This document shows positions 2,216 to 22,683 of a stretch of 64,000 bases of DNA, piece by piece. The translations under genes were made by a program, and so were the position numbers. Every line of letters starts with the position of its first letter. Position 1 is the stretch's first letter. The stretch covers positions 17,023 to 81,022 of the IMG/VR virus record IMGVR_UViG_3300028920_000061. The stretch is one strand, 5' to 3'. This DNA is from a virus. The notes below the pieces were generated by a model. That model saw nothing but the letters and a program-made list of their open reading frames with translations, searched no databases and was not told the DNA's origin.

Positions 2216-2223
2216 GAGGTATC

Positions 2224-3348: not shown

Positions 3349-4315
3349 TTCAAGAAAATGCTCATGGTCGTTTCTTTCCGAAAGGACGGAAACGGCCCCT
3401 AATATTCAATTTACACCAAAGGCCTTGAAATGGATCAAGGCGATGGTTGAAGAACATAGTGAAGAAGTTGGCTTTCTTGGTATTGTTAGAGAGGTTGATT
3501 CTTCATATGTCATTGATGAAATATTCTATCCGAAACATTGCCTTGCTACTTCATCAACATGTGAAATAGCGCCCGAAGGTGAAGTAGAATTGGCGCAATA
3601 TCTGATTGATAATAACAGGGTAGAAGATGTTGCTCGAGTCAGATTTTGGGGTCATTCTCATCATACGATGGGAACAACGCCGTCTGGCCAGGATGACGAT
3701 CAGGCATTACAAAAAATGAATAATAACGGTGCGTATTTCGTTCGCGCCATATGCAACAAAAAAGGCGAAATGTCAGTTTCATTCTTTGATCATGAACGAC
3801 AACTCAAATTTGAGAATGTCAAATGGTCGATATGTGAAAACTACGACGAAATTCTCGCCAATGTTATTTGCGCCACAAATATGGAATCAAATAGTAAGGG
3901 GAAAGTTCAAGCCATACGTGCTGCTATCTCTGCACAAATTGATTACAAAGATGACGAATACAAAAAGATTACCGAAAAAGTGAAAGAGCTCAAAAAGAAA
4001 AATCTCCCGGCATCCGAAACAAGGGGGTTGGCTCGGCAACCATACCAGAGAGGGGTTATACATAGCCCCGGACATTATCCAAACGACATCCTTCCCGGGT
4101 TCCAGCAAGATATGTTCGATGATGATTGGCCCCCGTATGGTCCTGAATTCTATCGGAACAACGCTGGGCAGATGCCTTATCAACGCCGGCAAAGTAATTT
4201 TCCAAAAGTGAATGGTGCAAGAAAAAACAAAAGAAAAAAAAATCGAAACGGGGCTCTTTTGTCCGATAAGGAAATAGATTCGGTTGTTTCAGAGGCATGG
4301 GAGGGTGGATTATGA
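3338..4315 (+). CDS. JAB/MPN+ (JAMM) metallopeptidase
   Basis: EVGFLG...WGHSHHTMGTTPSGQD matches E-xn-HxH-x7-S-x2-D. Confidence 0.9.
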   Translation: MNPDSRKCSWSFLSERTETAPNIQFTPKALKWIKAMVEEHSEEVGFLGIVREVDSSYVIDEIFYPKHCLATSSTCEIAPEGEVELAQYLIDNNRVEDVARVRFWGHSHHTMGTTPSGQDDDQALQKMNNNGAYFVRAICNKKGEMSVSFFDHERQLKFENVKWSICENYDEILANVICATNMESNSKGKVQAIRAAISAQIDYKDDEYKKITEKVKELKKKNLPASETRGLARQPYQRGVIHSPGHYPNDILPGFQQDMFDDDWPPYGPEFYRNNAGQMPYQRRQSNFPKVNGARKNKRKKNRNGALLSDKEIDSVVSEAWEGGL

Positions 4316-5070
4316 TCGACTATCTCAGGCAGCTTGATCTGCTAGACCCGAAACAGATCGGCAATCGTTCTGTCAGCCTGATTGGGGCAGGAGCTACGGG
4401 TTCGCACATTGCATGGTATCTCGCTCAGCTCGGGTGGGGTGCTTCAAATCAAGGTCAAGGCATTCTCAAGGTATTTGATGACGACACAATTGAAGGTCAC
4501 AATCTGGCTAACCAGATATACTGGCCGGAGCATGTCGGCAAGCTGAAAGTCGAAGCTCTCAAAGATATGATAATCAAGAAGTTTGGGTTTGAAATAGAAA
4601 CCCATCCTGAAAAGGTTACTGACCAGAGAAACGACGTTGCAGCAAAATATGTATTTCTTCTTACGGACACCATGAGCAGCCGTGAAGAAATATTTGAGAA
4701 ATGTCTTCATTTCCAATTCGCAACAGACTTGGTGATTGAAACCCGGATGGGTTTGCGAGACGGTCGGGTCTACGCATTCAATCCGAACGATCCTAACCAT
4801 ATTGAGGAATGGAAAAAAACGCTCTATAAGGATGAGGAGGCGTCTGCGTCACTCTGTGGTGCAAGCGCATCCATTATATCCACTGTAACTTTCCTGTCAT
4901 CGCTTGCGGTCTGCCGGCTTGTGCAGCATTTCAATTGCAACTATGGGAGCGACACTCTCCGTGAGGAGGGTAAACCAATGAGGATGTGGAACGAAGTCCA
5001 CTTCTCCCTGTACCCCGAAGCAATGATGTTGCGCCAATTCGGTGAGGCTAAAGAGCCAATAATTTTCTGA
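4312..5070 (+). CDS. ThiF/MoeB/E1-family Ubl-activating enzyme
   Basis: YLRQLD, GAGATGS nucleotide-binding loop, DDDTIEGHNLANQ, GKLKVEAL, TDTMSSR, and SLCG candidate catalytic Cys. ATG at 4312 overlaps the JAB stop (ATGA). Confidence 0.93.
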   Translation: MIDYLRQLDLLDPKQIGNRSVSLIGAGATGSHIAWYLAQLGWGASNQGQGILKVFDDDTIEGHNLANQIYWPEHVGKLKVEALKDMIIKKFGFEIETHPEKVTDQRNDVAAKYVFLLTDTMSSREEIFEKCLHFQFATDLVIETRMGLRDGRVYAFNPNDPNHIEEWKKTLYKDEEASASLCGASASIISTVTFLSSLAVCRLVQHFNCNYGSDTLREEGKPMRMWNEVHFSLYPEAMMLRQFGEAKEPIIF

Positions 5071-5086
5071 CGGAAGGTTTTATCAG

Positions 5087-5554
5087 ATGGTTATCGTTCA
5101 GCTCGTTAAGGTCGGATCTGAGGTCCGTTCTTTCGACATTTCAGACAATCCCACTCTCGGCAACCTGCTTCGCATAGCTGATGAGTCTTTCACTCCCAAT
5201 ACCATTACTATCAATGCCCAGAACGTTGTCAGTGAAAACACCACCCTCCGTGATGGAGACCGTGTTTTTATTGGTAACAAGGTCAAGGGAAATACTCCCT
5301 ATATTGTTGAGTTTATCCGACTCGGGCAGGCTGAGGTCGTTCGCATATCCACTGAGGGTAGTGCAACCATTGGTGACTGCATCAATATGATGAGTGACAC
5401 CAATCGGAACTATTTTATTGGTGGTGATGGAAACGATGTTTTTCAATACCAAATAAGCGGCGTTACCAAACAGTCCAGTGATATTGTTCCTTTGCCATCC
5501 CAGGAGGGCGGAACAGTTCGTGTTATCTGCGCGACGAAGGTAAAAGGCAATTAA
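5087..5554 (+). CDS. Tandem di-ubiquitin-like (two beta-grasp domains) protein
   Basis: Two ~70-85 aa units, each ending KVKGN (LRDGDRVFIGNKVKGN; TVRVICATKVKGN*); follows E1 and JAB. Confidence 0.85.
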   Translation: MVIVQLVKVGSEVRSFDISDNPTLGNLLRIADESFTPNTITINAQNVVSENTTLRDGDRVFIGNKVKGNTPYIVEFIRLGQAEVVRISTEGSATIGDCINMMSDTNRNYFIGGDGNDVFQYQISGVTKQSSDIVPLPSQEGGTVRVICATKVKGN

Positions 5555-5577
5555 GTCGCCACTTTAATAAGCAGATT

Positions 5578-5605
5578 AACCGGCGATGAGAAATCATCGC
5601 CGGTT
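5578..5605 (+). terminator. Perfect 12-bp hairpin (GAAA loop) closing the Ubl operon
   Basis: AACCGGCGATGA-GAAA-TCATCGCCGGTT; the U-tract is weak. Confidence 0.6.
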
Positions 5606-5749
5606 CTATACTGCAGAAAGGAGTAGGCATGTTTCTAACTTTAACCCATCCTCGGAGGTATTGTGTTTCATCGAATTTTCCAAAGCGCAAAAGGGGAAAA
5701 CAACAACCCTACTAGATTGGTGAAACTTGCTACAATTATAAAATCATTT

Positions 5750-5783
5750 GTGGGCCGCGGCCCCGCAAGGGGTCGCCCATTTT
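5750..5783 (+). terminator. Intrinsic terminator
   Basis: GC-rich hairpin with GCAA loop followed by TTTT. Confidence 0.6.
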
Positions 5784-5785
5784 AG

Positions 5786-5814
5786 CCGTTAGTTAAATAA
5801 AAAATATGGTATAA
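5786..5814 (+). promoter_or_regulatory. Promoter motif CCGTTAG-N14-TGGTATAA
   Basis: Identical boxes and spacing at 18347 and 18811. Confidence 0.7.
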
Positions 5815-5846
5815 TAATAATAGAAAACTTTAACAAAGGAGAAGTT

Positions 5847-6668
5847 ATGAAACGCCTTTTTATTATTCTTATGCTTGCTGCTACTGCATTTTCTTATGAT
5901 TCAACATGGGCTCATGCCAAATTTGAATTATCCGCCGCAGTACCAGAATGGTTTTTTCGTCAACATGATACGCTGGTAACATGGAATTACCCTGTTCATG
6001 AGTTTGATTCAGTATGGTACGTCAAAAAACATGTTAACAGCATATCATCATGTTTTGTATCAGATACTTATACACAAATTACCATTAATATTTGTGATAG
6101 TATGGAATTTTCTCAGCGACTTTTTGATGAATCAATTAGTTATGATGAAGATGATTACGGTTTTCATTACAGATCAATGGTCAAGTTATACTTTTTAAGA
6201 ACCGATTTTCAAATGGATAAAGTTTGGTATTGGTTCAGAACAGTTCGTAAACCTCTCGAAAGTTCTCGAACAGATACTATCCCATGGTATAATTATGGAT
6301 GGAGTTGGGACAATAATATCTATGTTCAAGGATTGCGAATTGTTAATAACGACGACGATACGTTGTTATATAGAGTTCCAATAGGATGTAGAATTTGTGA
6401 CCACCTTCTTGTCAAAGGCTTTGTAATGAATATTGATAGCGTTGGCGATCTCGTTTTTGTATATAATCGGTATAATGATTTTCAAAAATTTGACGGCTGG
6501 GAAAATCGTCTTACCATTTTACCAAAAAGGGAAGATATAGTTTCCACCAGCATGCCACAGACGCTTGCACCGTATCGTTTTCAAAATATTTTTCATGAAT
6601 TTGACGCTTTAGGTAGATTAGTTAGAGAAAAGCGTCAATGGCAAATCGTTTTTAAAAAGGCGCATTGA
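5847..6668 (+). CDS. Secreted hypothetical protein (moron-like)
   Basis: Signal peptide MKRLFIILMLAATAFS; C-terminal FDALGRLV...basic tail; has its own promoter and terminator. Confidence 0.75.
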   Translation: MKRLFIILMLAATAFSYDSTWAHAKFELSAAVPEWFFRQHDTLVTWNYPVHEFDSVWYVKKHVNSISSCFVSDTYTQITINICDSMEFSQRLFDESISYDEDDYGFHYRSMVKLYFLRTDFQMDKVWYWFRTVRKPLESSRTDTIPWYNYGWSWDNNIYVQGLRIVNNDDDTLLYRVPIGCRICDHLLVKGFVMNIDSVGDLVFVYNRYNDFQKFDGWENRLTILPKREDIVSTSMPQTLAPYRFQNIFHEFDALGRLVREKRQWQIVFKKAH

Positions 6669-6732
6669 TATGCGCCTTTTTTAGTTATTTGTCAATAGAT
6701 TGTGGTATAGAAATTATGAAAGGAGATTAGCT

Positions 6733-7008
6733 ATGCCAACAGCGTATATTATTTGTGATAACGATTCGGCACTTCATGTTGTTATGGGTAATGACAAGGA
6801 TAAGGCCGCCGACGATCATTATGCTGAACAAGTCAAGAAGAAAATAGCTGACCACGAACGGGAGCAATGCAAGAAGCATTATGGCAATAGTGGTTGGGAA
6901 GAGGTATTCAAACGACATTTTTTTCATATTAACAGGGTTACTGCAGAGGAAGCGCCTAATGAACAAGACTCTCATCATCAACATAAGCATGAGAATACGA
7001 TTGGATGA
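6733..7008 (+). CDS. Hypothetical protein
   Basis: AAGGAG RBS before ATG 6733; preceded by a GTTA-N15-TGGTATAG motif. Confidence 0.65.
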   Translation: MPTAYIICDNDSALHVVMGNDKDKAADDHYAEQVKKKIADHEREQCKKHYGNSGWEEVFKRHFFHINRVTAEEAPNEQDSHHQHKHENTIG

Positions 7009-7123
7009 AGATGTGCAAATCCATGAAGTACTCCAAAACGCCGCCATCAGCTTTCAAGATACTACTGGGAAAGCAGATATCGACGAAGCACATATTTTAG
7101 ATTATTCAGAAGTAGAACACTAG
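6959..7123 (+). CDS. Small hypothetical protein
   Basis: GAGG RBS, ATG 6959, 54 aa. Confidence 0.5.
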   Translation: MNKTLIINISMRIRLDEDVQIHEVLQNAAISFQDTTGKADIDEAHILDYSEVEH

Positions 7124-7139
7124 AGTGTATTCAAACTAT

Positions 7140-7543
7140 GGGCCCGCACTTGGGTTTCGATGTGGGTACTGAATCATATGTAGCATGCCGAGGACGACGG
7201 TTGGCCTCGTTAATCATCCGTCAAAACAACAACTGCCAAAAACGACGGTTGTGCAATGGGCGCTGAGTTCGCAATCCAGTTCGCTGAGATTTGCAACCTG
7301 GCGACCGCACCAGCGCTGGTCTAAAGACCGGCAAACATCACTGATTGACGCCGATATGGCAGTGGTGTAAAACATCGGCTGGACGGAGAGAGGGTCGAAC
7401 TCTCTGTTGAGATAAGACTAGAGTTCCAGTATAGCTGCCGTGTTCAGTAGACGGAACTGACAATAGAAATGGACCGGATAAGCATGTAGAAGCGTGTGTG
7501 GATGTATTTACAGACATCGGTTCGATTCCGATCGGGTCCACCA
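7140..7543 (+). ncRNA. ssrA: tmRNA (transfer-messenger RNA)
   Basis: Acceptor stem GGGCCCG/CGGGTCC with G3:U wobble, A discriminator and CCA; GGTTTCGA near the 5' end; T-arm ATCGG-TTCGATT-CCGAT; GCATG...GAGG/CCTC PK1 region; resume context AACT-GCC; tag ORF 7235-7324. Confidence 0.95.
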
Positions 7544-7547
7544 ACTC

Positions 7548-7576
7548 AAAGGCTGTCTTCGGACAGCCTTTTTTTT
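7548..7576 (+). terminator. Intrinsic terminator of tmRNA
   Basis: AAAGGCTGTC-TTCG-GACAGCCTTT plus T-run. Confidence 0.9.
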
Positions 7577-7588
7577 GAAAGGAGTATT

Positions 7589-8008
7589 ATGCCACCATGC
7601 TCAACATGTAACGGCGCATGCTGTTACCTATTTATGTTACGATGGTCGAAAAGGGATCTTCTGTTAAGACTGTCCGGAAAAGGTATGTTTCGAAATCTTA
7701 AAGTTTCAACTTTTGAAATAATCAAACAGCTAACCTTTCTTCGCGATGCAACCAGTCAATTTGAAAAGAATCGGGATCCATCGGTAAGATTTTTCACCTG
7801 TCTCGCCTTCTCTAATAACAGATGTTCTATTTATAAATACAGAATGGCCTTTTGTGAACCATACGATTGCAAAGGAACCAAACAAATAGCTCATACTATG
7901 TCACTTGATGGAAAACCGCCGCTCCCAATAATGAATCAGGAGGTGGATATTGACAGACAAACAGATTATAGCCTGCAAGTTGCCCGGCGACCTGTTCTCA
8001 TCTCCTGA
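7589..8008 (+). CDS. YkgJ-like Cys-cluster (Zn/Fe-chelating) protein
   Basis: CSTCNGACC ... CLAFSNNRCSIYKYRMAFCEPYDC pattern; AAGGAG RBS before ATG 7589. Confidence 0.75.
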   Translation: MPPCSTCNGACCYLFMLRWSKRDLLLRLSGKGMFRNLKVSTFEIIKQLTFLRDATSQFEKNRDPSVRFFTCLAFSNNRCSIYKYRMAFCEPYDCKGTKQIAHTMSLDGKPPLPIMNQEVDIDRQTDYSLQVARRPVLIS

Positions 8009-8954
8009 AAACATGGAGAAGGAATTCACCGAGCTTGCCCAGCGTTGGCATCCGGACAAGATGGGCGGCAACAGCATTGTTATGGCTCATGTGAATTCTC
8101 TTCATGCGCAGGGGAGGGAGATGGTTGCATCCGGCAATTGGAAATCATCCAATAAACGATTTTTCACCCTCTCTAATGGCAGAACTGTTCGTATAAGCTT
8201 TCTGTCTGAAAATGATTTTGAACTCGGCAAATGGTACCTCTGCGAATCGGTTTGTGTCTATGCTTTCAATACTGGCTCTGCAATAAATTTCAAACTTCCG
8301 AAATTCAGATTTCGCAATACCAGTATGACAGATGAATTTACCGCATATTTGCCAAGAATTATCGACCAGTATGAAGTAAACAACGGGAAAAAGCTCATTG
8401 TCATTAATCGTGAGAAAGACCTTGTTCTTCTACGCGATTTGTTGGCATGGTTTGGAAATGCAGTACCGCCAAAGCATGTAGCGTGGATTCTCAGCTCCCT
8501 TTACAACCTTTGTGCTTTCTTCAAATATAATGGAATTGTTCACCATTCCATTAATCTGAATACATATTTTATTTCCCCAGCAAAACATAAAGGGGTCTTG
8601 CTTGGCGGGTGGTGGTATCACAAAGGGTTCGACCGTCGAATGAAAGTAGTACCAAAATCAACATACGACGTGATGACTCTAGACACGAAAAAGTCCAAAA
8701 AAGCCACGCCCATTACCGATCTCGAATGTGTAAAACTTATAGGTCGTCAGCTTCTTGGAAGTGCCAGTGGGAGCACGCTATATTCCAATCCTGATATACC
8801 GAAGCCAATGATACAATTCCTGAGAACCATCTCGTCTGAGAATGCCTACAAGGAATATGAGGCCTGGACGAATGTTCTACAAGAAAGTTTCGGCCCAAAA
8901 AAATTCATTGAGATGGATTGCAACGCGGACGAAATTTACAAGAAGCCATCCTAA
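7950..8954 (+). CDS. J-domain (HPD) fused to degenerate kinase-like domain
   Basis: LAQRWHPDK J-motif; C-terminal HVAWILSSL...GIVHHSIN...LLGGWWY, a kinase-fold pattern seen next to vWA and PurA-like genes. Confidence 0.75.
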   Translation: MTDKQIIACKLPGDLFSSPENMEKEFTELAQRWHPDKMGGNSIVMAHVNSLHAQGREMVASGNWKSSNKRFFTLSNGRTVRISFLSENDFELGKWYLCESVCVYAFNTGSAINFKLPKFRFRNTSMTDEFTAYLPRIIDQYEVNNGKKLIVINREKDLVLLRDLLAWFGNAVPPKHVAWILSSLYNLCAFFKYNGIVHHSINLNTYFISPAKHKGVLLGGWWYHKGFDRRMKVVPKSTYDVMTLDTKKSKKATPITDLECVKLIGRQLLGSASGSTLYSNPDIPKPMIQFLRTISSENAYKEYEAWTNVLQESFGPKKFIEMDCNADEIYKKPS

Positions 8955-8994
8955 CAGGTGGATAATCAATAACTTATAACAAAAGGAGTGTTTC

Positions 8995-9249
8995 ATGGGT
9001 GAAGCACCAAAGGGCTTCGAGCCCGAAACTGCCGTTGAAAAAACTGCGGACACCACCACAGAAGAAGCCCAGGCGGCCCCAGAATCCACTGGAGGGCAGC
9101 GGTCTGAAGAAGCTGCCGAAGAGGTTGCGTCGGAAGAGGCACCTGCAGAAGGCGGCTCAGAGGGCGCCGCAGAGCCTACAGCAGAAGATCCTGACGATGA
9201 ACCCTCTTCCGAGGTGCCTGAAGAGGACGAAAAAGCAGATTCCGAATAA
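8995..9249 (+). CDS. Highly acidic low-complexity protein
   Basis: AAGGAG RBS; E/A/P-rich 84 aa with almost no aromatic residues. Confidence 0.65.
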   Translation: MGEAPKGFEPETAVEKTADTTTEEAQAAPESTGGQRSEEAAEEVASEEAPAEGGSEGAAEPTAEDPDDEPSSEVPEEDEKADSE

Positions 9250-10697: not shown

Positions 10698-11873
10698 ATG
10701 AGAATCAAAGCAATAATTGGAAGTGGCATGGGTGATGAAGGTAAGGGTCGCATGACCGAATACTTTTCCGACAGCAAATCAATTGTTGTACGATTCAACG
10801 GAGGGGCACAAGCTGGTCATACTGTCGTACTTTCTGACTGGGCGCGTCATGTATTTCATCATTTTGGAAGTGGGAGCCTGCATGGTGCTCAAACATATCT
10901 GAGCAAATTTTTTATTGCCAATCCGATGTTCTTCTGTCGAGAGCGTAGAGAACTTCTGGCGAATTTTCAATGTAATCCTGATGTTTATATCAGTCCGTTT
11001 TGTTTTGTTACGACACCATGGGATATGATCATTAATGATCTAACAAATCAGAAAAACCAACATGGTACCTGTGGATTTGGCATTAACGAGACTGTTGAAC
11101 GATGTCAGAAGATGACATTAAATGTCAGTACGCTTCAGGCGGACTACTTTGACGACCTTCTCATGCACATCGTCAATGACTGGGTTCCGGTAAGAATTGA
11201 AGAGCTTGGGCTTGAGCCCGACGCAACATACCGCAAATGGCTTTCAAGCGAGAAGATGATAGACAATTTCAAAGATGATGTCAAATCATTTCTCAATTGG
11301 GTAACGATAGGAGACCCAAACTTTGACTTTGCCGAACAAGTCATTTTTGAAGGCGCTCAGGGACTCATGCTCGATCAGAATCATGAAAATTTCCCATATG
11401 TTACCAGGTCGAATACGGGAACCGGAAATGTCCGCGAACTGATTGAGGATTTTCATCTTCACGATGAACTGGAAGTGACATACGTTACCCGGTCATATGC
11501 GACCAGGCATGGGGCCGGACCTTTACTTCATGAGGATAAGACTCTCCAATATGGCGACCCAACAAACGTTCCAAACAGGTTTCAGGGAAGTCTACGATAT
11601 GGCCTTCTCGATATAAATCAAATTGTTCATGAAATCAATCAAGATATGGTAAATCTAAACGGCCTGGAGTACAATCCAAGTATTGCAGTCACCTGCCTGG
11701 ACCAAAATCCCGGATATTGTATCTGGGATGGTAAGGAAGAGCGCTTGTCACACAGTGAGCTATGCAAGCACGCTCTTGCGGACAATCTCCAGTTTAGCAA
11801 GGCGTATGGGTCCATTGGCCCCAGAACAACTGATCACATGAAAGTGTGGGAAAGGAAAGGGGTGCCAGTATAA
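10698..11873 (+). CDS. purA: Adenylosuccinate synthetase-like protein (divergent PurA family)
   Basis: GDEGKG, RFNGGAQAGHT, FEGAQGLMLD, FPYVTRS, TRHGAGP; canonical TTGR aspartate loop replaced by TNVPNRFQG. Confidence 0.85.
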   Translation: MRIKAIIGSGMGDEGKGRMTEYFSDSKSIVVRFNGGAQAGHTVVLSDWARHVFHHFGSGSLHGAQTYLSKFFIANPMFFCRERRELLANFQCNPDVYISPFCFVTTPWDMIINDLTNQKNQHGTCGFGINETVERCQKMTLNVSTLQADYFDDLLMHIVNDWVPVRIEELGLEPDATYRKWLSSEKMIDNFKDDVKSFLNWVTIGDPNFDFAEQVIFEGAQGLMLDQNHENFPYVTRSNTGTGNVRELIEDFHLHDELEVTYVTRSYATRHGAGPLLHEDKTLQYGDPTNVPNRFQGSLRYGLLDINQIVHEINQDMVNLNGLEYNPSIAVTCLDQNPGYCIWDGKEERLSHSELCKHALADNLQFSKAYGSIGPRTTDHMKVWERKGVPV

Positions 11874-12226
11874 TGGCTGAAGTAGCGCTGGTCAAAATCA
11901 CTTGTTGCGCCGAAGGTTACCATGTTCCATTCTGGATATCGGCAGCGCACAATTCGCATCTTCATGATACGCATGAATGGTTCTATTGTCCGAATGGTCA
12001 TCAACAGCATTACCCGCAGGAGACCGACGAAGAAAAATTCAAGCGACTCTACGAATTCGAAAAGAAAAATCGGGTTCAGGTAGAGCGTAGAGCAGAAAGA
12101 AATTACCAGAATTTTGAACAACAGATTCGATATACAGCGGCGCAGAAAGGGCTCGTTACAAAACTTCGCAAACAACTGAGGGAAAAGAATGAAAGAGATA
12201 ATCTACCCAAACGGGGAAACGCTTGA
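11873..12226 (+). CDS. Hypothetical protein with Cys/His motif and coiled coil
   Basis: FYCPNGHQQHY followed by a coiled coil; ATG overlaps the purA stop. Confidence 0.65.
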   Translation: MAEVALVKITCCAEGYHVPFWISAAHNSHLHDTHEWFYCPNGHQQHYPQETDEEKFKRLYEFEKKNRVQVERRAERNYQNFEQQIRYTAAQKGLVTKLRKQLREKNERDNLPKRGNA

Positions 12227-12452
12227 CTTTGAAACAAAAAAAGAGAAGCCAAGTCTTAAAGAACTGCAGAAAGCGGTTGGGGGGTACATTGAGTTGGTTC
12301 AGCTTCTTGATGGCAATATCATGATCATAAATGAAGAAGGGAAGCTCAACGATCTTGAGCCGAACCATGTTGCTACTGAAAAAGCGTTTCCTAAAGGTGG
12401 TGATATTATTGTCGGGAATGCTGTCGTACTTTCACCGGAGTTGATGATCTAA
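12189..12452 (+). CDS. DUF3846-like protein
   Basis: LKELQKAVGGYIE...INEEGKL..L.PN...IVGNAV. Confidence 0.75.
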   Translation: MKEIIYPNGETLDFETKKEKPSLKELQKAVGGYIELVQLLDGNIMIINEEGKLNDLEPNHVATEKAFPKGGDIIVGNAVVLSPELMI

Positions 12453-12676
12453 TGCCAGAAATTATTATAACCATAGCAGCCAAAGAGCTGGATCATGAGC
12501 AGCTTGATGAGGTTCGATATACAATTGAAAAGGTGGCTTCTTTGTTAGCAAATTCAAAGCCACCAAGCTTAAATGAAGTTATGGCGAATGCGTTAACAGG
12601 CACATTACCTGAGATGAGAACTCCAACCATGGTAATGAAAGCCACTTATGATTACATGCGGGGGAATCGTGGGTGA
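12452..12676 (+). CDS. Hypothetical protein
   Basis: Translationally coupled (TAATG). Confidence 0.55.
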   Translation: MPEIIITIAAKELDHEQLDEVRYTIEKVASLLANSKPPSLNEVMANALTGTLPEMRTPTMVMKATYDYMRGNRG

Positions 12677-12820
12677 ATACATGATACCAGCAGATGAGTT
12701 TATTGACGGGTTCGAAGACTTCCTTCGTAACTTTGAAGGTAATGTGTCAGCGGAATGTGTAGCCGAAGCGTGGAACAGGCTGGCTGAAAAATACGAATGG
12801 TCTGATAAGTTATTTGCCAA

Positions 12821-13027
12821 ATGAAAAGAAAAAGAATTGATATACCCAATGACGCGGTTCGGTCACTTGACTGGTTATGTGAAAAATGTGGCGAATCGCG
12901 TCCTGGGTGTATTTTAAGATTAATAGCAATGGGAGTTCGTGAAACAGAACTTTTTCTTCAAAGAAAGAAGTATCAAGAAGTTATCAATCGGTGGGGAGAA
13001 CCTACTCGAAAGATGGTCAAAAAATGA
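12821..13027 (+). CDS. Small basic protein, possibly ribbon-helix-helix
   Basis: MKRKRIDIPNDAVRSLDWL...SRPGCILRLI pattern; last gene before the cassette array. Confidence 0.5.
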   Translation: MKRKRIDIPNDAVRSLDWLCEKCGESRPGCILRLIAMGVRETELFLQRKKYQEVINRWGEPTRKMVKK

Positions 13028-13091
13028 AAGTTTGTAATACAAGGAGTTATGCAAAACTCTAGTCATGCTTTTTATTGATCGGAGGTTGCTT

Positions 13092-13322
13092 GTGTTTCAA
13101 ATAATGTTAGCATCATTCATAACAGGGTTTGTGTGTTTCTTGCTTGGTTGCTGGTATCAGCAACGCAACAGTAACACTAAGGTAGGCACTCCTTCCGCAT
13201 CGCACAACAGGCCAATTATGCAAGTTTGCCCTGTGTGCGGTAGTAGCGTTTCTTTACAACCATCTTTGGGTGCAAATATATACGGCTGTTGCAAGTGCGA
13301 GTGGTACGGCAAACCAGCATAA
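13092..13322 (+). CDS. Cassette 1: membrane anchor plus CxxC...CxxC zinc ribbon
   Basis: GGAGG then GTG 13092; hydrophobic N-terminus; the CPVCG...CCKC tail is encoded inside hairpin 1. Confidence 0.6.
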   Translation: MFQIMLASFITGFVCFLLGCWYQQRNSNTKVGTPSASHNRPIMQVCPVCGSSVSLQPSLGANIYGCCKCEWYGKPA

Positions 13323-13378
13323 GTTGGCCGAACCGTTGTCGGCAATATCTGTTGAACCATAATGTAAAGGAGTGCCTA

Positions 13379-13696
13379 ATGGCAAATTTTCGTAATCAAC
13401 TTACCGACCTTATCAACTGTCACTCGCTAGAGAACGGCAGTGATACTCCAGACTACATCTTGGCAGCATACTTGGATGGTTGCCGCAAAGAATTTGACGC
13501 TGCCGTTAACGCCCGTGCTCGGCACTCCTCAGAACAAGAGGTGTCAACAGAGAAAGCCGACAACAGCGACTATGCGGCGGCGCTTGAAGTGTGGGGCGAG
13601 TTTTTGAACACGTTCGTGATAACAGAAAGCGATAATAAGGTTTTTCCAGAGTGGTGTCGTAAGCGCCTCAATTCGGAGAAACCGAACTGCGCATAA
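13379..13696 (+). CDS. Cassette 2: hypothetical protein
   Basis: AAGGAG RBS; LINCHSLENGSDTPDYILAAYL is a recurrent small-phage-protein pattern. Confidence 0.75.
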   Translation: MANFRNQLTDLINCHSLENGSDTPDYILAAYLDGCRKEFDAAVNARARHSSEQEVSTEKADNSDYAAALEVWGEFLNTFVITESDNKVFPEWCRKRLNSEKPNCA

Positions 13697-13745
13697 TCGC
13701 AAACGTTGTACAAAATTTGTGCGCTTTTGAATTGGAGGTTGCGCC

Positions 13746-13949
13746 GTGAAATATTGTAAGGTTGAATTTATGTGCGATTGGTATCCGAACGATACGAGTA
13801 AATGCCCTCACCGTGTTTTAGATAAGTACCGTGATTGCATTTACGAAAATATTATTGCCGAAAACTATGCTATTTGTGGCAGCGAAGAGGCGCAACGGGA
13901 AGCTATGGAAGCGCACAAACTTCGTACAACAGGCCAAGTGTCGCAATAG
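13746..13949 (+). CDS. Cassette 3: Cys-rich hypothetical protein
   Basis: GGAGG RBS, GTG start. Confidence 0.65.
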   Translation: MKYCKVEFMCDWYPNDTSKCPHRVLDKYRDCIYENIIAENYAICGSEEAQREAMEAHKLRTTGQVSQ

Positions 13950-14020
13950 TCAAAGCACTACTGCGCACGTTGGCCGGAACGTTGCAGGCCATAGGGGCTG
14001 AACCATATTGGAGGTTGGTA

Positions 14021-14302
14021 GTGGTGCAAGTAAAGTGGTTGCAGATATACAAGTGTCGTGACTGTTGGCACCTTGAGCCGAGTTACGGAACTGGTGATAG
14101 GCGTTGCGGATTAACTGGGCGCAAGTGTGAATATGTCCCCGGCGTTGGGTGGTATGAGGATGTGCCGGAATGGTGTCCACTACCAACAGCAGAATCGGAG
14201 TCAGCCCCAACAGGCCAACAACAGTCCGCAGGAACGCCATTGTCGCAGGATTATGGAATAAATAAACGGTTGGAGCGCGAACAACAGCGTCCGTGCGGCT
14301 AA
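14021..14302 (+). CDS. Cassette 4: Cys-rich protein (CxxC...C...PEWCPL)
   Basis: GGAGG RBS; CRDCWH...RRCGLT...VPEWCPLP. Confidence 0.65.
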   Translation: MVQVKWLQIYKCRDCWHLEPSYGTGDRRCGLTGRKCEYVPGVGWYEDVPEWCPLPTAESESAPTGQQQSAGTPLSQDYGINKRLEREQQRPCG

Positions 14303-14348
14303 TCGTTGTAGGTCATAGCTGGTGAACCATATTGTAAAGGCGGTCAAC

Positions 14349-14639
14349 ATGGATTTTGAAAATAGAAAGAAGTTGCGCGAGAAGTACCGAGAAGAAACTG
14401 GATTTATGTGGAAGGTTCCACACCCAAAGTTTCTGCTTGCATCAGAGGGGTATGTCATGTGGCTTGAAGACCGCCTTGAAAAGGCGGAGTCACCAGCAAC
14501 GAACCCACAACAAACGCAGCCTGCCATTGCTCAACTCTGGGAACGGTATTCTGGTATTATGCCTGACGATACTCTGGAGAAACGTGCTTGTATTGCTAAT
14601 TTTGTCAGATATGTTGAGCAACAACAGGCGGGTGCGTAA
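14349..14639 (+). CDS. Cassette 5: hypothetical protein
   Basis: LREKYREETG...YVMWLEDRL; stop lies inside hairpin 5. Confidence 0.65.
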   Translation: MDFENRKKLREKYREETGFMWKVPHPKFLLASEGYVMWLEDRLEKAESPATNPQQTQPAIAQLWERYSGIMPDDTLEKRACIANFVRYVEQQQAGA

Positions 14640-14696
14640 TCAGTTGTGCGCAATCAACTGGCGAGTCTACATTGTAGGCCGCCGAAGGAGGTAAAG

Positions 14697-14900
14697 ATGA
14701 AAGGATTTATCGGTTTGATTATTGTGGTTCAAATTGTAGTGTACATCGGGATGGTGTCACTGGTCGGATGGGGCCTCTGGACTGGCGCAAGATATGTGTC
14801 AAAGCACGGCGTAAAATCAATTGTAGAGGAAATGTGGAACGGGTCGGCGGCAGAAAAAGAGGGTTCGCCAGTTGACAACACACAACAGCCGCAGCACTAA
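14697..14900 (+). CDS. Cassette 6: single-pass membrane protein
   Basis: AAGGAGG RBS; long hydrophobic helix followed by HGVKSIVEEMWNG. Confidence 0.7.
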   Translation: MKGFIGLIIVVQIVVYIGMVSLVGWGLWTGARYVSKHGVKSIVEEMWNGSAAEKEGSPVDNTQQPQH

Positions 14901-14977
14901 ATACTATCGTACTTCGTGCGAGTGCGGCGATACGTTGTGTGTTCGCTTCGCAAATTTTAACCTTTGGAGTATTGTAA

Positions 14978-15250
14978 ATGGAAATACATTGTTGCGGTTG
15001 CGTTGCTGAAGATATTTGTGAGGCTGTTCAGGGCGATAATAGATGTCTTGATTTCCATAAGGCTTTGGAAGCGGTTAAAACGTCACACAACAGCGCTAGT
15101 ACGCAATATTTTCCCGATGAAAAGGAGATGAAACATGCCGCGAGTCAGTGGATTGATTACCTAAGCACTATAGATTCAACATACTCTGACTTAGAGCAAA
15201 CTTTTATACAGGGAGTACGATGGGGTATCGGCCAACTGCCGGGCAAGTAG
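14978..15250 (+). CDS. Cassette 7: hypothetical protein
   Basis: GGAG RBS; Cys-rich N-terminus; more than half of the ORF lies within hairpin 7. Confidence 0.6.
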   Translation: MEIHCCGCVAEDICEAVQGDNRCLDFHKALEAVKTSHNSASTQYFPDEKEMKHAASQWIDYLSTIDSTYSDLEQTFIQGVRWGIGQLPGK

Positions 15251-15296
15251 TGCGAGACGTTTTGTGAATATGCCGATGTAAAATGCAAATGGAGGT

Positions 15297-15617
15297 GTGA
15301 TTAAACATGAAAGCTATAGTATTCGGATCAGAAGGTTGTGTGAAAGTCCAGTCAGCTTTTTAACAATTGGAGGCGGCATGCCACATTTCAGCGAAGAAGA
15401 AACGATTTCGATAATCAAACGTCTGATTGAGTTAGCAGAAATCAAGGAAGGGCGCCTCAAATCTAAGGAGTTGGCTACTTCACCCAACAACCGCTATGCG
15501 ACGGCGCTTGAGGTGTTGAATGAGTATGAAGAGGATGATTCATATTCTCCCAACGAACCGCCGTTTGAGATATGGCTCAAGTTGCGCCTAAATGCCGATG
15601 GCACTTCGCATAGCTAA
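15297..15617 (+). CDS. Cassette 8: hypothetical protein (start may be ATG 15378)
   Basis: GGAGG before both candidate starts; C-terminal tail homologous to cassette 2. Confidence 0.6.
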   Translation: MIKHESYSIRIRRLCESPVSFLTIGGGMPHFSEEETISIIKRLIELAEIKEGRLKSKELATSPNNRYATALEVLNEYEEDDSYSPNEPPFEIWLKLRLNADGTSHS

Positions 15618-15679
15618 ATCGTTATAGTCAATAAATTTGCCTTCTGATAGTATAGTCAGCTGGTAAGAAAGGAATTATT

Positions 15680-15832
15680 ATGCCATTGTATACAGTATCA
15701 GCAGATTGTCCAATCACGGAGTACGAAGCTGATGATGAAATGGGTGCTATCGAACAGTATTCTGAGAATTATCGTGTTAATTACAAGTTTTGTTCAGCAA
15801 CAAAGTGTGATGAACCCGCTGAAGAAGAATAA
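15680..15832 (+). CDS. Cassette 9: 50-aa acidic protein (not in ORF track)
   Basis: AAAGGA RBS; MPLYTVSADCPITEYEADDEMGAIEQ...AEEE*. Confidence 0.6.
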   Translation: MPLYTVSADCPITEYEADDEMGAIEQYSENYRVNYKFCSATKCDEPAEEE

Positions 15833-15937
15833 GGTGGGCAAATTTACAGCAACCAACAACCGTATGGTGTTCGTTTCACGAATGCGGGTATGCACTTCAC
15901 CATACTTTCCCGTTATAGGCTGTTTGAGGAGGCTTTT

Positions 15938-16204
15938 ATGGATATAGCAAATTTGACCCGATACACTATTGATTATGTTCCAGACTCTTGTGATGGTGAT
16001 TATGTTCAGCATAATGTAAGCAAGGATGGCGAGTATGTCAAATTTGAGGAAGCTATGGAAGCCTCCTCAAACAGCCTACAACAGCTAAAGGCTGAAATTT
16101 TAGCACTACGCAAAGATGGTGTAGTTGCAGACGATATGTATTGGATTGGTTGGAACATGGCCCTTGAACGTACTGCTGGTATGCTAAAACAATCAGCCGT
16201 TTAG
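15938..16204 (+). CDS. Cassette 10: hypothetical protein
   Basis: GAGGAGG RBS; LTRY...DGEYVKFEEA pattern. Confidence 0.7.
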   Translation: MDIANLTRYTIDYVPDSCDGDYVQHNVSKDGEYVKFEEAMEASSNSLQQLKAEILALRKDGVVADDMYWIGWNMALERTAGMLKQSAV

Positions 16205-16250
16205 CAAACATTGTCGGTAATCGGTTGTCAAATTATAGAAGGGCGGCAAA

Positions 16251-16562
16251 ATGAAGTTGAAAATGCACTCGTTTGATTTTGGTGAAAACACTCTGACATT
16301 TAGTATTCCCGCTGCTACTATGGAGTCCCATGCTTGGGGTAATGTCCCTGATGGTGTAGATGTAGACCTGTCCAAGGTGACTAATGACGTTGCCCTTGGG
16401 ACTAATGGAACAACCGACTCCGCTGGCGCTACCGACAACATCGCAAGGGACGAAATATTGCGCTGTATCACGTACATAGATAATTATTTATCGGCTGGCA
16501 ATATTGAATCGGCTCGCAAATGGTGCAACGAAGTACGCGCAATACTATCGCCCGTTGCGTAA
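16251..16562 (+). CDS. Cassette 11: hypothetical protein
   Basis: ORF ends within hairpin 11. Confidence 0.6.
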   Translation: MKLKMHSFDFGENTLTFSIPAATMESHAWGNVPDGVDVDLSKVTNDVALGTNGTTDSAGATDNIARDEILRCITYIDNYLSAGNIESARKWCNEVRAILSPVA

Positions 16563-16599
16563 CCGTTGCACGCCAGTTTTGATTTTGGAGATTTGTATT

Positions 16600-16782
16600 A
16601 TGTCAATATTGCCTAAACGTTGCAAATGTGGCAGATGGTCGTGGAGTATTCGGCGTAGAAGATTAAACACAGCCTACGTTGACGAGGAAAGAAATTATAT
16701 GTACTCGTGTCGCGAGTGCTATGAAGAGGCTTACGAATACTACGCCGAACGATGGGCGGATTATTATGCTAATTGCATGTAG
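16600..16782 (+). CDS. Cassette 12: small Cys-containing protein
   Basis: GGAG RBS; CKCG...RRRLNTAYVDEERNY..SCRECYE...YYAERWADYY. Confidence 0.7.
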   Translation: MSILPKRCKCGRWSWSIRRRRLNTAYVDEERNYMYSCRECYEEAYEYYAERWADYYANCM

Positions 16783-16823
16783 GAAGTGCAAAACCAGCAT
16801 GCAACAACAGCCGGAGGTAAAAA

Positions 16824-17066
16824 ATGCAAGAACAAAGAGAAAAAGCCCATTCGATATTACGCAAGGCATTCGATGAGGCTGGAATAGCAGATGGGTTTTA
16901 TTGTGGTGTTTTAATGGATGGAACTGATGTATCCGCGTACAGTGTCGGACGTGAGAATAAGGCAGAGTATTCTAACGTAGAGCGGTATCAACGCCTTCTC
17001 GGTGTTGTTGAATCGTGCAAATACTCATTATTGGTCAAAGCTCACGAAAAGCAGGAAAAATCATGA
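16824..17066 (+). CDS. Hypothetical protein
   Basis: GGAGG RBS. Confidence 0.6.
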   Translation: MQEQREKAHSILRKAFDEAGIADGFYCGVLMDGTDVSAYSVGRENKAEYSNVERYQRLLGVVESCKYSLLVKAHEKQEKS

Positions 17067-17175
17067 AAGGTTTTGTCACCCCACAACAATGATGTTATTT
17101 TTTTTCACTTTGTGGAATAGTAATAATATACAGATCTTTTGAAATATCATATATTCTACAACAAAGGAGGAATTC

Positions 17176-17937
17176 ATGGCAAAGGTCCATGAAATTGTTG
17201 CTGTCGAGAAAGACGTGAAGGGCACATTCAATAAGATGCTGGGTGAAACTCGCATGACATTCCTGAAGGGTGAGCATTTCGATGAGCACCTGAAAGAATA
17301 CCAGCCGCTCAATGCTGACGATCGTGAACAGCTCGATGCCGAACACAAGCCCATGGCTGACACTGTCCCCAGCAAGTTGTCATATTTCATGGGGCATATG
17401 AAGAGAATGTTCGACTTGGTGATACAGAAAGAAGTATCCAATCTGGACGCCAAAGCTGATGTCACTGTTCAAACAGACAGTGGTGATGAAGTTGTTTTGT
17501 ACGAACAGGCTCCGGTTGCGGCTATTGTTCAGCTTACCAATCTGATGGAAAGCGTTCGGATTCAGGTTCTTTTGAATATCCCCACGCTTGATCCGGCAAG
17601 ATCCTGGGCATCCGACGGAAATCGTCAGGACGTGTTTGTCACCCCCGAAGTCAGACGCGCCAGAACCAAGAAGGTGCAGGTCCCTATCGAATTGTCGCCG
17701 GCTACAGACAGACACCCGGCGCAGGTTCAGCTTGTCACGGAAGATGTGACTACCGGCCACTGGGTGCAGAAGTACTGGTCCGGTAAGATATCTTCGGCTG
17801 ACAAGTCAATGATTCTGAAACGAACCGACGCCCTCATAGCAGGCCTCAAAAGAGCCAAGTCGAGGGCTAATGAGAGTGAGGCGAAGAAGGTTGCCATAGG
17901 CGATCGCTGCGCCAAATGGATTTTGACAGGAGAATAA
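17176..17937 (+). CDS. Conserved helical hypothetical protein upstream of a structured RNA
   Basis: Strong AAGGAGG RBS and own promoter motif (17094). K-x-HEI-x-AVEK, Y-x-P...D-x-EQL, IPTLDP, RTKKV...AT-D-RHPAQV are motifs of a widespread uncharacterised family (recognised from memory, not searched). Confidence 0.85.
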   Translation: MAKVHEIVAVEKDVKGTFNKMLGETRMTFLKGEHFDEHLKEYQPLNADDREQLDAEHKPMADTVPSKLSYFMGHMKRMFDLVIQKEVSNLDAKADVTVQTDSGDEVVLYEQAPVAAIVQLTNLMESVRIQVLLNIPTLDPARSWASDGNRQDVFVTPEVRRARTKKVQVPIELSPATDRHPAQVQLVTEDVTTGHWVQKYWSGKISSADKSMILKRTDALIAGLKRAKSRANESEAKKVAIGDRCAKWILTGE

Positions 17938-22074: not shown

Positions 22075-22683
22075 TCACGTTATTGCTCTCTTTAATAGAT
22101 AGGACCCATTAATAAACTCTATAATATCTTTTTGCAAAAGTGAAACAATTAATTTTTCTATGGAATGATGCCCTTTTATATGATCGCTTTCATTTTTATA
22201 TAACCAAAGATTTTCAATGTTATTATTTTCTTTATTCAAATCAATGTGATGCACTGTCTCATTTGAACTTAATTGTCTTCCAATTTTTTGTTCAATTAAA
22301 TATCGATGTATGTATATTCTTCTTCCTTTTGACGTTACCAGTTGTGGTCGCCATTTTTTAAATTTATTAGAACTTTTTTTTCGACCTTTCTTTTTTTTAC
22401 CCCTATTAAATTCAATACCACATTCAAAAGAACAAAATTTCTTTTTTTTCCATTTTTCAATTTGAAAAATCACCCTACACTGTGGGCATTTTCTCGATTC
22501 ATAAAATACGTGCCTAGGTTTTAACCCACATTTTATAGAACAAAATTTTTGCTTATTCCATTTTTGAGTAAAAAATGTTTTTTTACAACTTGGACAAACC
22601 CTTTGATCGTTTTTATACGATCCATATTTTGCTACAGATTCTTTTGTTGGCATAACATCATCCTCCTTGACAACATTATACAT
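22075..22683 (-). CDS. HNH homing endonuclease with two N-terminal Cys repeats
   Basis: CPxCxxxF...KFCSxxC twice; YIHRYL...GRQL...ETVHHIDLNKENNNIENL; markedly AT-rich compared with neighbours. Confidence 0.9.
   Translation of the reverse strand: MYNVVKEDDVMPTKESVAKYGSYKNDQRVCPSCKKTFFTQKWNKQKFCSIKCGLKPRHVFYESRKCPQCRVIFQIEKWKKKKFCSFECGIEFNRGKKKKGRKKSSNKFKKWRPQLVTSKGRRIYIHRYLIEQKIGRQLSSNETVHHIDLNKENNNIENLWLYKNESDHIKGHHSIEKLIVSLLQKDIIEFINGSYLLKRAIT

Follow-up and report, generated by a model that had tools for sequence, protein, structure and literature searches.

What are the hairpins that close a run of small genes in a large phage, and could they be sites at which those genes are exchanged? 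The IMG/VR record IMGVR_UViG_3300028920_000061 (81 kb, estimated 45% complete) belongs to a large tailed phage, and we analyzed its positions 17023-81022 (64,000 nucleotides, here called the window). About 11 small-gene cassettes lie at window 13.0-16.6 kb, each ending in an imperfect hairpin. Integrons are the textbook bacterial device for capturing and reordering genes and are defined by the integrase IntI and the geometry of the attC sites; IntI recombines the folded bottom strand of attC. An original prediction, made from the letters of this stretch, held that mismatches in the hairpin arms favor folding of the bottom DNA strand and that the hairpins are single-stranded substrates of a distinct recombinase subfamily. 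Judging from sequence comparisons, we found that the region is probably the cassette array of a phage-borne integron-like recombination system, a variant of the integron principle.

We found that 10 of the gene ends share a layout and differ in sequence. From 5' to 3', each consists of ACAAC (R''), a single nucleotide (A in eight sites, C in two), the L'' arm, a loop of 4-100 nt, the L' arm, a spacer of 4-6 nt, and GTTGT (R'). The 5' half of the site is located 60-150 nt into the open reading frame (ORF), whose stop codon is found in the L' arm, the spacer, or the loop. ACAAC occurs inside the ORF in all three codon phases and is therefore a motif at the level of the nucleotides, not of the peptide. 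The inverted core has AAC in all 10 sites and GTT in 9 (H10 has ATT). R' reads GTT-R-Y-N-N, with T or C at position 5 in 10 of 10 sites, and the window sites do not conform to the integron 7-bp consensus RYYYAAC/GTTRRRY. A scan of the 81-kb record for this architecture gave 10 matches in this orientation, 9 of them within 13205-16568, compared with 2 in the opposite orientation and 0, 0, 2, 2, and 1 in five shuffles. Two atypical elements, H7 and H12, were left out before all counts, which rest on the 10 well-defined sites. The features of the array, in window coordinates, are these:

13046..13050, + strand: attI-like first crossover site (GTTAT) at the upstream array boundary, where a contig of sequencing run X1 has a joint (13045/13335)
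13065..16562, + strand: eleven small cassette ORFs of 50-105 aa, each with its own Shine-Dalgarno sequence
13204-13339, + strand: H1, cassette 1 hairpin, with ACAAC-A-GGCCAA, a bulged G, spacer GAACC, and GTTGT
13334..13378, + strand: conserved cassette leader, from GTTG to the start codon, with similar copies at 13980-14020 and 14304-14348
13560-13709, + strand: H2, cassette 2 hairpin, without a bulge; circle junction 9/9
13926-13985, + strand: H3, short cassette 3 hairpin, with R' GTTGC and a bulged G
14218-14309, + strand: H4, cassette 4 hairpin, with a bulged G
14507-14647, + strand: H5, cassette 5 hairpin, with a GGG bulge and three A.C mismatches
14882-14938, + strand: H6, short cassette 6 hairpin, with a GAG bulge
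15077-15263, + strand: H7, atypical long-range stem AAAAC...GTTTT without a spacer; not counted
15487-15625, + strand: H8, cassette 8 hairpin, with R' GTTAT, without a bulge, related in sequence to H2
15856-15916, + strand: H9, short intergenic hairpin, with R' GTTAT, without a bulge
16078-16214, + strand: H10, cassette 10 hairpin, with a bulged G and R' ATTGT
16435-16569, + strand: H11, cassette 11 hairpin, with R' GTTGC and a G.G mismatch; circle junction 9/9
16804-17008, + strand: H12, uncertain long-range stem CAACAACA...TGTTGTTG around the last small gene; not counted

At the upstream boundary, GTTAT at 13046 forms seven of nine pairs plus two A.C with the ACAAC flank of cassette 1, and no hairpin lies upstream of it. 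The conserved leader is present at 3 of 11 junctions, the remaining junctions sharing only about 5-9 nt, and its pattern had no match in viral contigs. In H12, the + strand is the more stable one.

The original prediction had noted that arm mismatches are mostly A.C or C.A on the + strand, and we found this tendency to be stronger than it had stated. We counted mismatches inside helices after a strand-neutral alignment of the arms. The transition mismatches of the 10 window sites are 24 A.C and 0 G.T on the + strand, where base composition (A.283, C.194, G.261, T.262) predicts a slight excess of G.T over A.C. The L arms have 12 A.C-type, no G.T-type, and 6 other mismatches, and the 5-bp R core has 5 A.C, no G.T, and no other (its departures being GTTGC twice, GTTAT twice, and ATTGT once). 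The pair adjoining the core is A.C in 7 of 10 sites and of another kind in 3. When the arms alone were folded with DNA parameters, the - strand was favored at all 10 sites, by a mean of -1.9 kcal/mol (Wilcoxon p=0.002); with RNA parameters, the mean - strand advantage was -4.5 kcal/mol. On the - strand, the R stem closes as six pairs, one of which is T.G.

We found the same asymmetry at 33 further sites in nine other contigs (47 A.C versus 4 G.T). Eighteen of these sites, from seven metagenome contigs, have 27 A.C, 1 G.T, and 5 other mismatches, with an A.C adjoining the core in 17 of 18; their arms favor the - strand in 18 of 18 cases, by a mean of -2.9 kcal/mol. The other 15 sites, from the recombinase-carrying contigs L014 and L021, have 20 A.C, 3 G.T, and 7 other mismatches, and the - strand is favored by the arms in 13 of 15. 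The bottom strand was thus the better folder of the arms in the window, in other metagenome contigs, and at recombinase-linked sites, as the prediction had it.

Unpaired bases recur at one position. In the 3' arm, after an L box of 5-6 bp, there is an extra G in H1, H3, H4, and H10, GGG in H5, and GAG in H6; H11 has a G.G mismatch there, and H2, H8, and H9 have no bulge. The distance from these bases to GTT is 10-11 nt in H1, H3, H4, H5, H6, H10, and H11. Among the 33 further sites, 25 have a bulge, 24 of them at 9-12 nt from GTT; 12 of the bulges are G or GGG, and 9 are A. For the 18 metagenome sites, the figures are 14 with a bulge at 9-11 nt, G or GGG in 7, and A in 5. We concluded that the position of the bulge is conserved and that its identity is not. 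The original prediction had made its case depend on a strand bias and a conserved bulge position in a larger set of sites, and we found both.

The geometry also differs from that of canonical attC, as had been proposed. In the window, all unpaired bases and the one-sided spacer are on the top-strand 3' arm, i.e., the crossover arm. In contrast, the 11 attC sites of the integron of Vibrio phage MK672802, our canonical control, carry their extra bases on the top-strand 5' arm and have a two-sided, symmetric spacer. The window sites mirror the canonical layout whichever strand folds. In the control, the bottom strand differed from the top strand by +1.5 kcal/mol and was the more stable one in only 2 of 11 sites. 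Contrary to the analogy drawn in the original prediction, a bottom-strand energy advantage is thus not a property of the control attC sites. The window sites may therefore owe their strand choice not to unpaired bases alone but also to wobble pairs, whose strand bias the canonical controls lack.

In integrons, the crossover lies in R'; what follows GTT is the start of the next cassette and is complementary to the R'' flank of that cassette. We paired the 9-mer ending in the AAC of each cassette with the cassette's own last base and the 8 bases that start it, as they would meet in a circle. In the window, 76 of 99 positions paired, compared with 66.1±3.1 under random assignment (p=0.0018). At the informative flank positions 6-9, the count was 28 of 44 versus 18.2±3.0 (p=0.0013) and, minus H7 and H8, 27 of 36 versus 16.0±2.8 (p=0.00014). 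Cassettes 2 and 11 paired at 9 of 9 positions. The tail of the same hairpin as partner gave 17 of 44, which is the null level. These junctions have 11 A.C, 0 G.T, and 3 other mismatches. The MK672802 integron, as a positive control, paired at 132 of 135 positions (57 of 60 in the flank); its array context gave the null level.

The same complementarity was found elsewhere. Eleven cassettes of other metagenome contigs gave 77 of 99 versus 62.6±3.5 (p=0.0002), one of the 11 pairs being set one base off and not consecutive, which can only weaken the signal. For 14 recombinase-linked cassettes of L014 and L021, we found 103 of 126 versus 79.5±4.3, a value that 0 of 20000 permutations reached.

The variation of the array in nature was followed in contigs only, from two marine-sediment runs: X1, the probable source run, and X2, a run of another study that holds 12% of the sampled words. 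The X1 assembly breaks up inside the array: the depth, 42-43 in the flanks, drops to 17 over cassette 1 and to about 4 over cassette 2 and is 31 over 14719-15971. In one X1 contig, position 13045 is followed by 13335, the two sides having GTT in common, at a depth of 21 versus 17 for the form with cassette 1; in this contig, cassette 1 is absent or replaced, from the GTTAT at 13046 to the GTT of H1. Another X1 contig begins at 13703 (H2), and X2 contigs lose similarity at 13334, at 14304 (H4), and at 16213 (H10). Among the 27 breakpoints listed, to which these figures are confined, 7 are no more than 3 nt away from an R' GTT, compared with about 0.6 expected (Poisson); without the two breakpoints at 13046, there are 5 versus about 0.55 expected (Poisson).

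Homology between contigs ends at the same place. The leader after GTTG in H1, H3, and H4 matches eight JGI metagenome contigs (L006-L013), and 13 of 15 of these alignments begin 1-4 nt before GTT, with different flanking genes; the edges fall at 13331-13334 in H1 and at 14304 in H4. All of these data taken together, that is, the complementarity of cassette ends, the contig breaks at GTT, and the homology edges at GTT, led us to conclude that the elements are recombination cassettes.

The cassette 2 region (13365-13702) has a contig depth of about 4 in X1, compared with about 42 in the flanks, so that the allele of the array in the assembled record is a minority one. We also observed that ACAAC lies mostly in a Ser/Pro/Thr/Gln-rich stretch that separates the N- and C-terminal parts of the small proteins (13204-16439). 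Cassettes 2 and 8 (13530-13720 versus 15460-15640) resemble each other only from CAAC on, with 32% identity in the C-terminal 47 residues and about 45 nearly identical nucleotides. This suggests that C-terminal modules, besides whole genes, are exchanged at the 5' half-site.

Which enzyme would act on such sites was approached through relatives of the array. The complete module at 13560-13709 (H2) is homologous to a site in L008, an 11.6-kb contig of 52% GC with another backbone (DUF2800 nuclease, Enc34-type single-stranded-DNA-binding protein, PolA). L008 has an array of at least six such sites and, 4 kb upstream of it and on its strand, a gene for a 323-aa tyrosine recombinase. This phage, a PolA/DUF2800-type phage, and other contigs have the leader and hairpin modules in common. 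Among NCBIfam models, the L008 recombinase scores 142.6 bits with XerA_Arch (cut-off, 220), 138.6 with XerC (335), and 130, in two stretches, with the integron integrase (265); among PDB sequences, it matches XerA-like 4a8e at 2e-37 and IntI4 at 2e-25.

When viral contigs were scanned for the L008 recombinase as a single protein, there was no match; an alignment of its homologues retrieved 80 viral loci, in which a strict site scan gave 40 matches in 1.13 Mb. L014 and L021, the 1st and 8th loci in order of E-value, were the only ones with same-strand arrays of at least five strict matches. L014 is the closest relative (39% identity), and L021 has 35% identity. Apart from these two and L016-L018, the other 75 loci have at most two strict matches. 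L016-L018 (about 1860-9220) are near-identical AT-rich viral loci (GC 0.29) with a recombinase relative of 34% identity and five strict matches on the opposite strand; their several (T)AAC...GTTA hairpins have 6-7 nt spacers and a different look, and this divergent layout resembles a classical integron more.

In L014 and L021, the arrays begin about 200 nt after the recombinase gene, in the same orientation. L021 has seven sites behind a 268-aa recombinase gene, from about 220 nt past the stop codon, and L014 has three sites behind a 280-aa recombinase gene and five more 7 kb further on. An attI-like GTTG lies a few bases (L021) to about 45 bases (L014) past the recombinase stop codon and is followed by GGAAATAAA in both. 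With the flank of the first cassette, it pairs at 9 of 9 positions in L014 and, by eye, at 8 of 9 in L021, where the computed score of 2 was obtained with the coordinate one base off. Cassette 4 of L021 (11884-12009) shares its R''-L'' sequence with H10, and thus the window cassettes belong to the same pool as the recombinase-linked ones. We also noted that the L021 cassette at 12007-12783 has a weak match, below the cut-off, to a C-5 cytosine DNA methylase (E=9e-4). In a survey of phage-borne integron cassette clusters (Qi et al. 2023, PMC9892861), methyltransferases were the commonest cargo of the clusters without an integrase.

With the integron-integrase model, the L008, L014, and L021 enzymes reach 125-157 bits, the cut-off being 265. 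They are without the roughly 40 residues that the IntIA of MK672802 has between K-G-x-K and H-x-L-R-H; the IntI-specific insertion is a defining feature of IntI. Their best-scoring model is NF040815 (XerA-like "site-specific tyrosine recombinase/integron integrase"), at 130-194 bits and below its cut-off of 220. PF00589 matches the linked enzymes with E-values of 1e-26 to 3e-34, and the catalytic columns (R, K, H-x-x-R, H, Y) are invariant in them. PF13495, for a SAM-like N-terminal domain, is above its cut-off only in L014 (34.2 versus 27); L008 is below it at 19.3, and L021 has no reported match. By these signatures, the linked enzymes can be classed as predicted Xer-class tyrosine recombinases. 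The idea of a distinct recombinase thus gained ground from L014 and L021, where arrays stand directly behind short Xer-class enzymes without the IntI insertion, and the window's own record has no such enzyme.

Recombinase relatives also occur in bacteria. In L097, a Flavobacteriaceae genome contig (7575-13630), a XerA-like homologue without the insertion (234.9 bits; cut-off, 220) stands before four larger cassettes (254-499 aa) with CAAC...GTTG sites at their ends, and their three junctions pair at 9 of 9 positions by eye. One cassette protein of L097 has a beta-lactamase-fold match far under the cut-off (90.6 versus 415 bits). Among 80 prokaryotic loci with recombinase relatives, L097 was the only one with a convincing array. 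L116 was rejected as an array, its five matches being mainly one small hairpin repeated four times.

From these results we propose how the system would work. Each cassette consists of a small ORF behind a leader that has the ribosome-binding site, and its end is a structured site, made up in order of R'' ACAAC within the ORF, the imperfect inverted repeat L''/L', a purine bulge, a one-sided spacer of 4-6 nt, and R' GTTG(T). Exchange would take place inside GTTG, and therefore the bases past GTTG would belong to the next cassette; an excised cassette circle would rebuild an R stem of 8-9 bp. We infer that the substrate is most likely the bottom (template) strand, folded as single-stranded DNA. 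On that strand, every transition mismatch becomes a G.T wobble, and the R stem gains a conserved T.G pair. By extension from its relatives, this phage is most likely served by a short tyrosine recombinase of the Xer class that lacks the IntI insertion.

Several observations weigh against this proposal. Whole-site folding favors the - strand only weakly, in 7 of 12 sites in array context. When both strands of the reconstituted circle junctions were folded, as the original prediction had suggested, the - strand was better in 7 of 9, which agrees in direction and is weak in strength (p=0.055). The mismatch asymmetry could be imitated by a strand-biased mutation process (on the + strand, G to A and T to C). 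We found no tyrosine, serine, or Y1-HUH recombinase (no PF00589, PF00239, or PF01797 match) and no relative of the L008 recombinase in the 81-kb record, which is estimated to be 45% complete. Likewise, Pfam and PHROGs scans of 56 record proteins showed no recombinase; the same scans showed a Gp3-like RDF domain, an RNase T/PD-(D/E)XK nuclease, a SNF2 helicase, and an HNH endonuclease. The L008 recombinase, 4 kb from its array, could be an ordinary lysogeny integrase. The sides of the contig joints are short (22-46 nt), and letters between the two sides are possible. Some edges are at R'' within genes, namely at 13209 (X2), at 13560 (L008), and at 15085/16078, a joint that makes an in-frame hybrid at a depth of 2. 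Finally, the leader (35-55 nt) and the linkers of about 50 nt around ACAAC are 75-97% conserved between contigs with different genes, and because these elements are common to the contigs, homologous recombination may contribute.

This last point is the strength of one rival explanation, in which the sites are boundary elements like the PeSLs (promoter-early stem-loops) of T4-type phages and serve modular shuffling by homologous recombination, independently of a recombinase, with leader and linker as the short homologies. The edges at both R'' and R' would fit, and two reports (PMC2839356, PMC4122927) describe PeSLs as mediating shuffling and forming mini-circles. However, the conserved leader is present at only 3 of 11 junctions, T-runs are absent, and a sigma-70 match is found at only 2 of 11 junctions, where the -10 box would overlap the ribosome-binding site. 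Homologous shuffling also leaves unexplained the constant geometry of hairpins that vary in sequence, the wobble bias, the circle-junction complementarity, and the recombinase linkage, and we consider it unlikely. A reading of the sites as sigma-70 promoters or terminators was rejected: no T-run follows the stems, a promoter-like match is present at only 2 of 11 junctions, and the stems differ in sequence. In the wider region (window 11800-17400), there are 26 sigma-70-like matches versus 10.0±3.8 in shuffles, 17 of the 26 being on the - strand, antisense to the small genes. These matches, like the larger - strand advantage with RNA parameters (mean, -4.5 kcal/mol), would suit a role in RNA, whether as structures that form in antisense (- strand) transcripts or as hairpins in the mRNA through which the small genes are controlled in stability or translation. 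The mRNA (+) strand is, however, the one that the mismatches disfavor, and neither the complementarity of cassette ends nor the breakpoints at GTT nor the link to a recombinase would be expected of RNA elements; we regard such a role as highly improbable.

The array might instead be an ordinary integrase-less integron cassette cluster (CALIN) that came from a bacterial integron and is served by a canonical bacterial IntI. Such clusters have the AAC...GTT core, L arms, length range, and cassette-end complementarity in common with the window sites, and there is a precedent in Qi et al. (2023, PMC9892861), where 17 CALINs were found in phages and IntI1 recombined five of six phage attC sites. What speaks against this origin is that the unpaired bases lie on the arm opposite to that of canonical attC, that R' has a pyrimidine at position 5 in 10 of 10 sites where GTTRRRY has a purine, and that the array-linked recombinases lack the IntI insertion and reach only 125-157 bits of the 265 required. 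We think a canonical CALIN quite improbable.

Compared with integrons, this system would be the same in having an array in one orientation of mostly single-gene cassettes, with sites conserved in structure and not in sequence. The inverted AAC...GTT core, a second inverted repeat, unpaired bases, and, in the relatives, a recombinase gene beside the first site are also common to both, as is the assignment of the bases after GTT to the next cassette (window p of about 1e-3; canonical control, 132/135). The window sites differ in that the spacer and bulge are on the crossover arm, as the mirror image of the Vibrio attC sites, and the spacer is one-sided (0-1 versus 4-6 nt). They differ as well in the conserved A.C adjoining the core (T.G on the - strand) and the wobble strand bias, neither of which is found in the canonical controls, and in a 5' half located 60-150 nt into the ORF. 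The linked enzyme is without the IntI insertion and stands in cassette orientation. Integrons have reportedly been described in archaea also.

Other phage systems share some of these features. CALINs have been described in virulent phages and, as in the window, consist of attC-type sites with no integrase nearby; in that report, they are called canonical by IntegronFinder/HattCI, have as few as two sites, and are recombined by IntI1, whereas the window has about 11 noncanonical sites (Qi et al. 2023, PMC9892861). PeSLs likewise flank small accessory genes, in the variable regions of large phages, mark shuffling breakpoints, and form mini-circles; they are compact terminator stem-loops of conserved sequence fused to sigma-70-like promoters, and the window sites have neither (PMC2839356, PMC4122927). 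On the CTX phage, a Xer-class enzyme exchanges one strand pair on a folded single-stranded DNA hairpin, in contrast using a single attachment site and the host XerCD, with no cassette array or dedicated phage enzyme (PMC3442271). The XerA-like family NF040815 provides the best model for the linked enzymes, and the phage enzymes differ from it in falling under its cut-off. Our literature search for precedents led only to Qi et al. (2023) and the PeSL reports and to no account of a phage array that combines a Xer-like recombinase with such a site geometry, which is no proof that none exists.

The record of this phage encodes a baseplate wedge protein, a primase-helicase, a SNF2 helicase, a nuclease, and an adenylosuccinate-synthetase-like gene of a PurZ PHROG. 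Rhizobium phages of the RHph_TM30 group are its nearest named relatives, at about 40% protein identity, and a comparable array was not found in the nearest named phages (the RHph_TM30 group, a faecal phage, and RHEph12). There are 13-14 small genes on the + strand at 13065-17066, each preceded by a Shine-Dalgarno sequence, and family matches of their proteins are weak or absent. The 93-aa protein of 14021-14302 had no relatives among 5.8 billion proteins. Array DNA had no match in GenBank phages, flanking proteins had no relatives in viral or metagenome contigs in single-protein scans, and three window proteins of unknown function matched nothing among PDB sequences. No Rfam family matches the array region, two weak matches being due to chance, and the sequencing runs that hold the stretch include no RNA data set.

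Some neighboring features were noted. A 391-aa adenylosuccinate-synthetase-like protein (window 10698-11873) matches the PurZ-annotated PHROG at 8e-54; going by this match, 2-aminoadenine may replace adenine in the phage DNA and alter hairpin stabilities. After the last small gene, window 17066-17175 has a mini-palindrome (ACAAC-6 nt-GTTAT), a run of eight T's, and an AT-rich spacer, followed by a DUF7873 gene; this stretch may mark where the array ends or be the terminator. The DUF7873 protein has its closest relatives, at 66% and 61% identity, in ENA contigs. Farther on are a gene for a 202-aa HNH_3 endonuclease (22075-22683, - strand) and, in the structural block, a 2441-aa ORF (29902-37227, - strand).

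A more far-reaching account, which we offer tentatively and hold to be a little short of probable, is that the array belongs to an undescribed phage analogue of the integron with relatives in Bacteroidota chromosomes. A short Xer-like enzyme encoded in the same orientation would recombine folded bottom-strand sites that are mirror images of attC, with the 5' half-site placed in a protein linker. Because that half-site lies between two protein parts, exchange at GTTG would shuffle whole genes between unrelated phages, and exchange at ACAAC would swap C-terminal modules. If this is true, the cassette principle evolved or diversified beyond IntI. The small accessory genes are probably concerned with host takeover or antidefense, and the array would provide a concrete mechanism for their fast turnover between unrelated phages. 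As a natural experiment, it would also show how strand choice in single-strand recombination depends on unpaired bases and wobble pairs.

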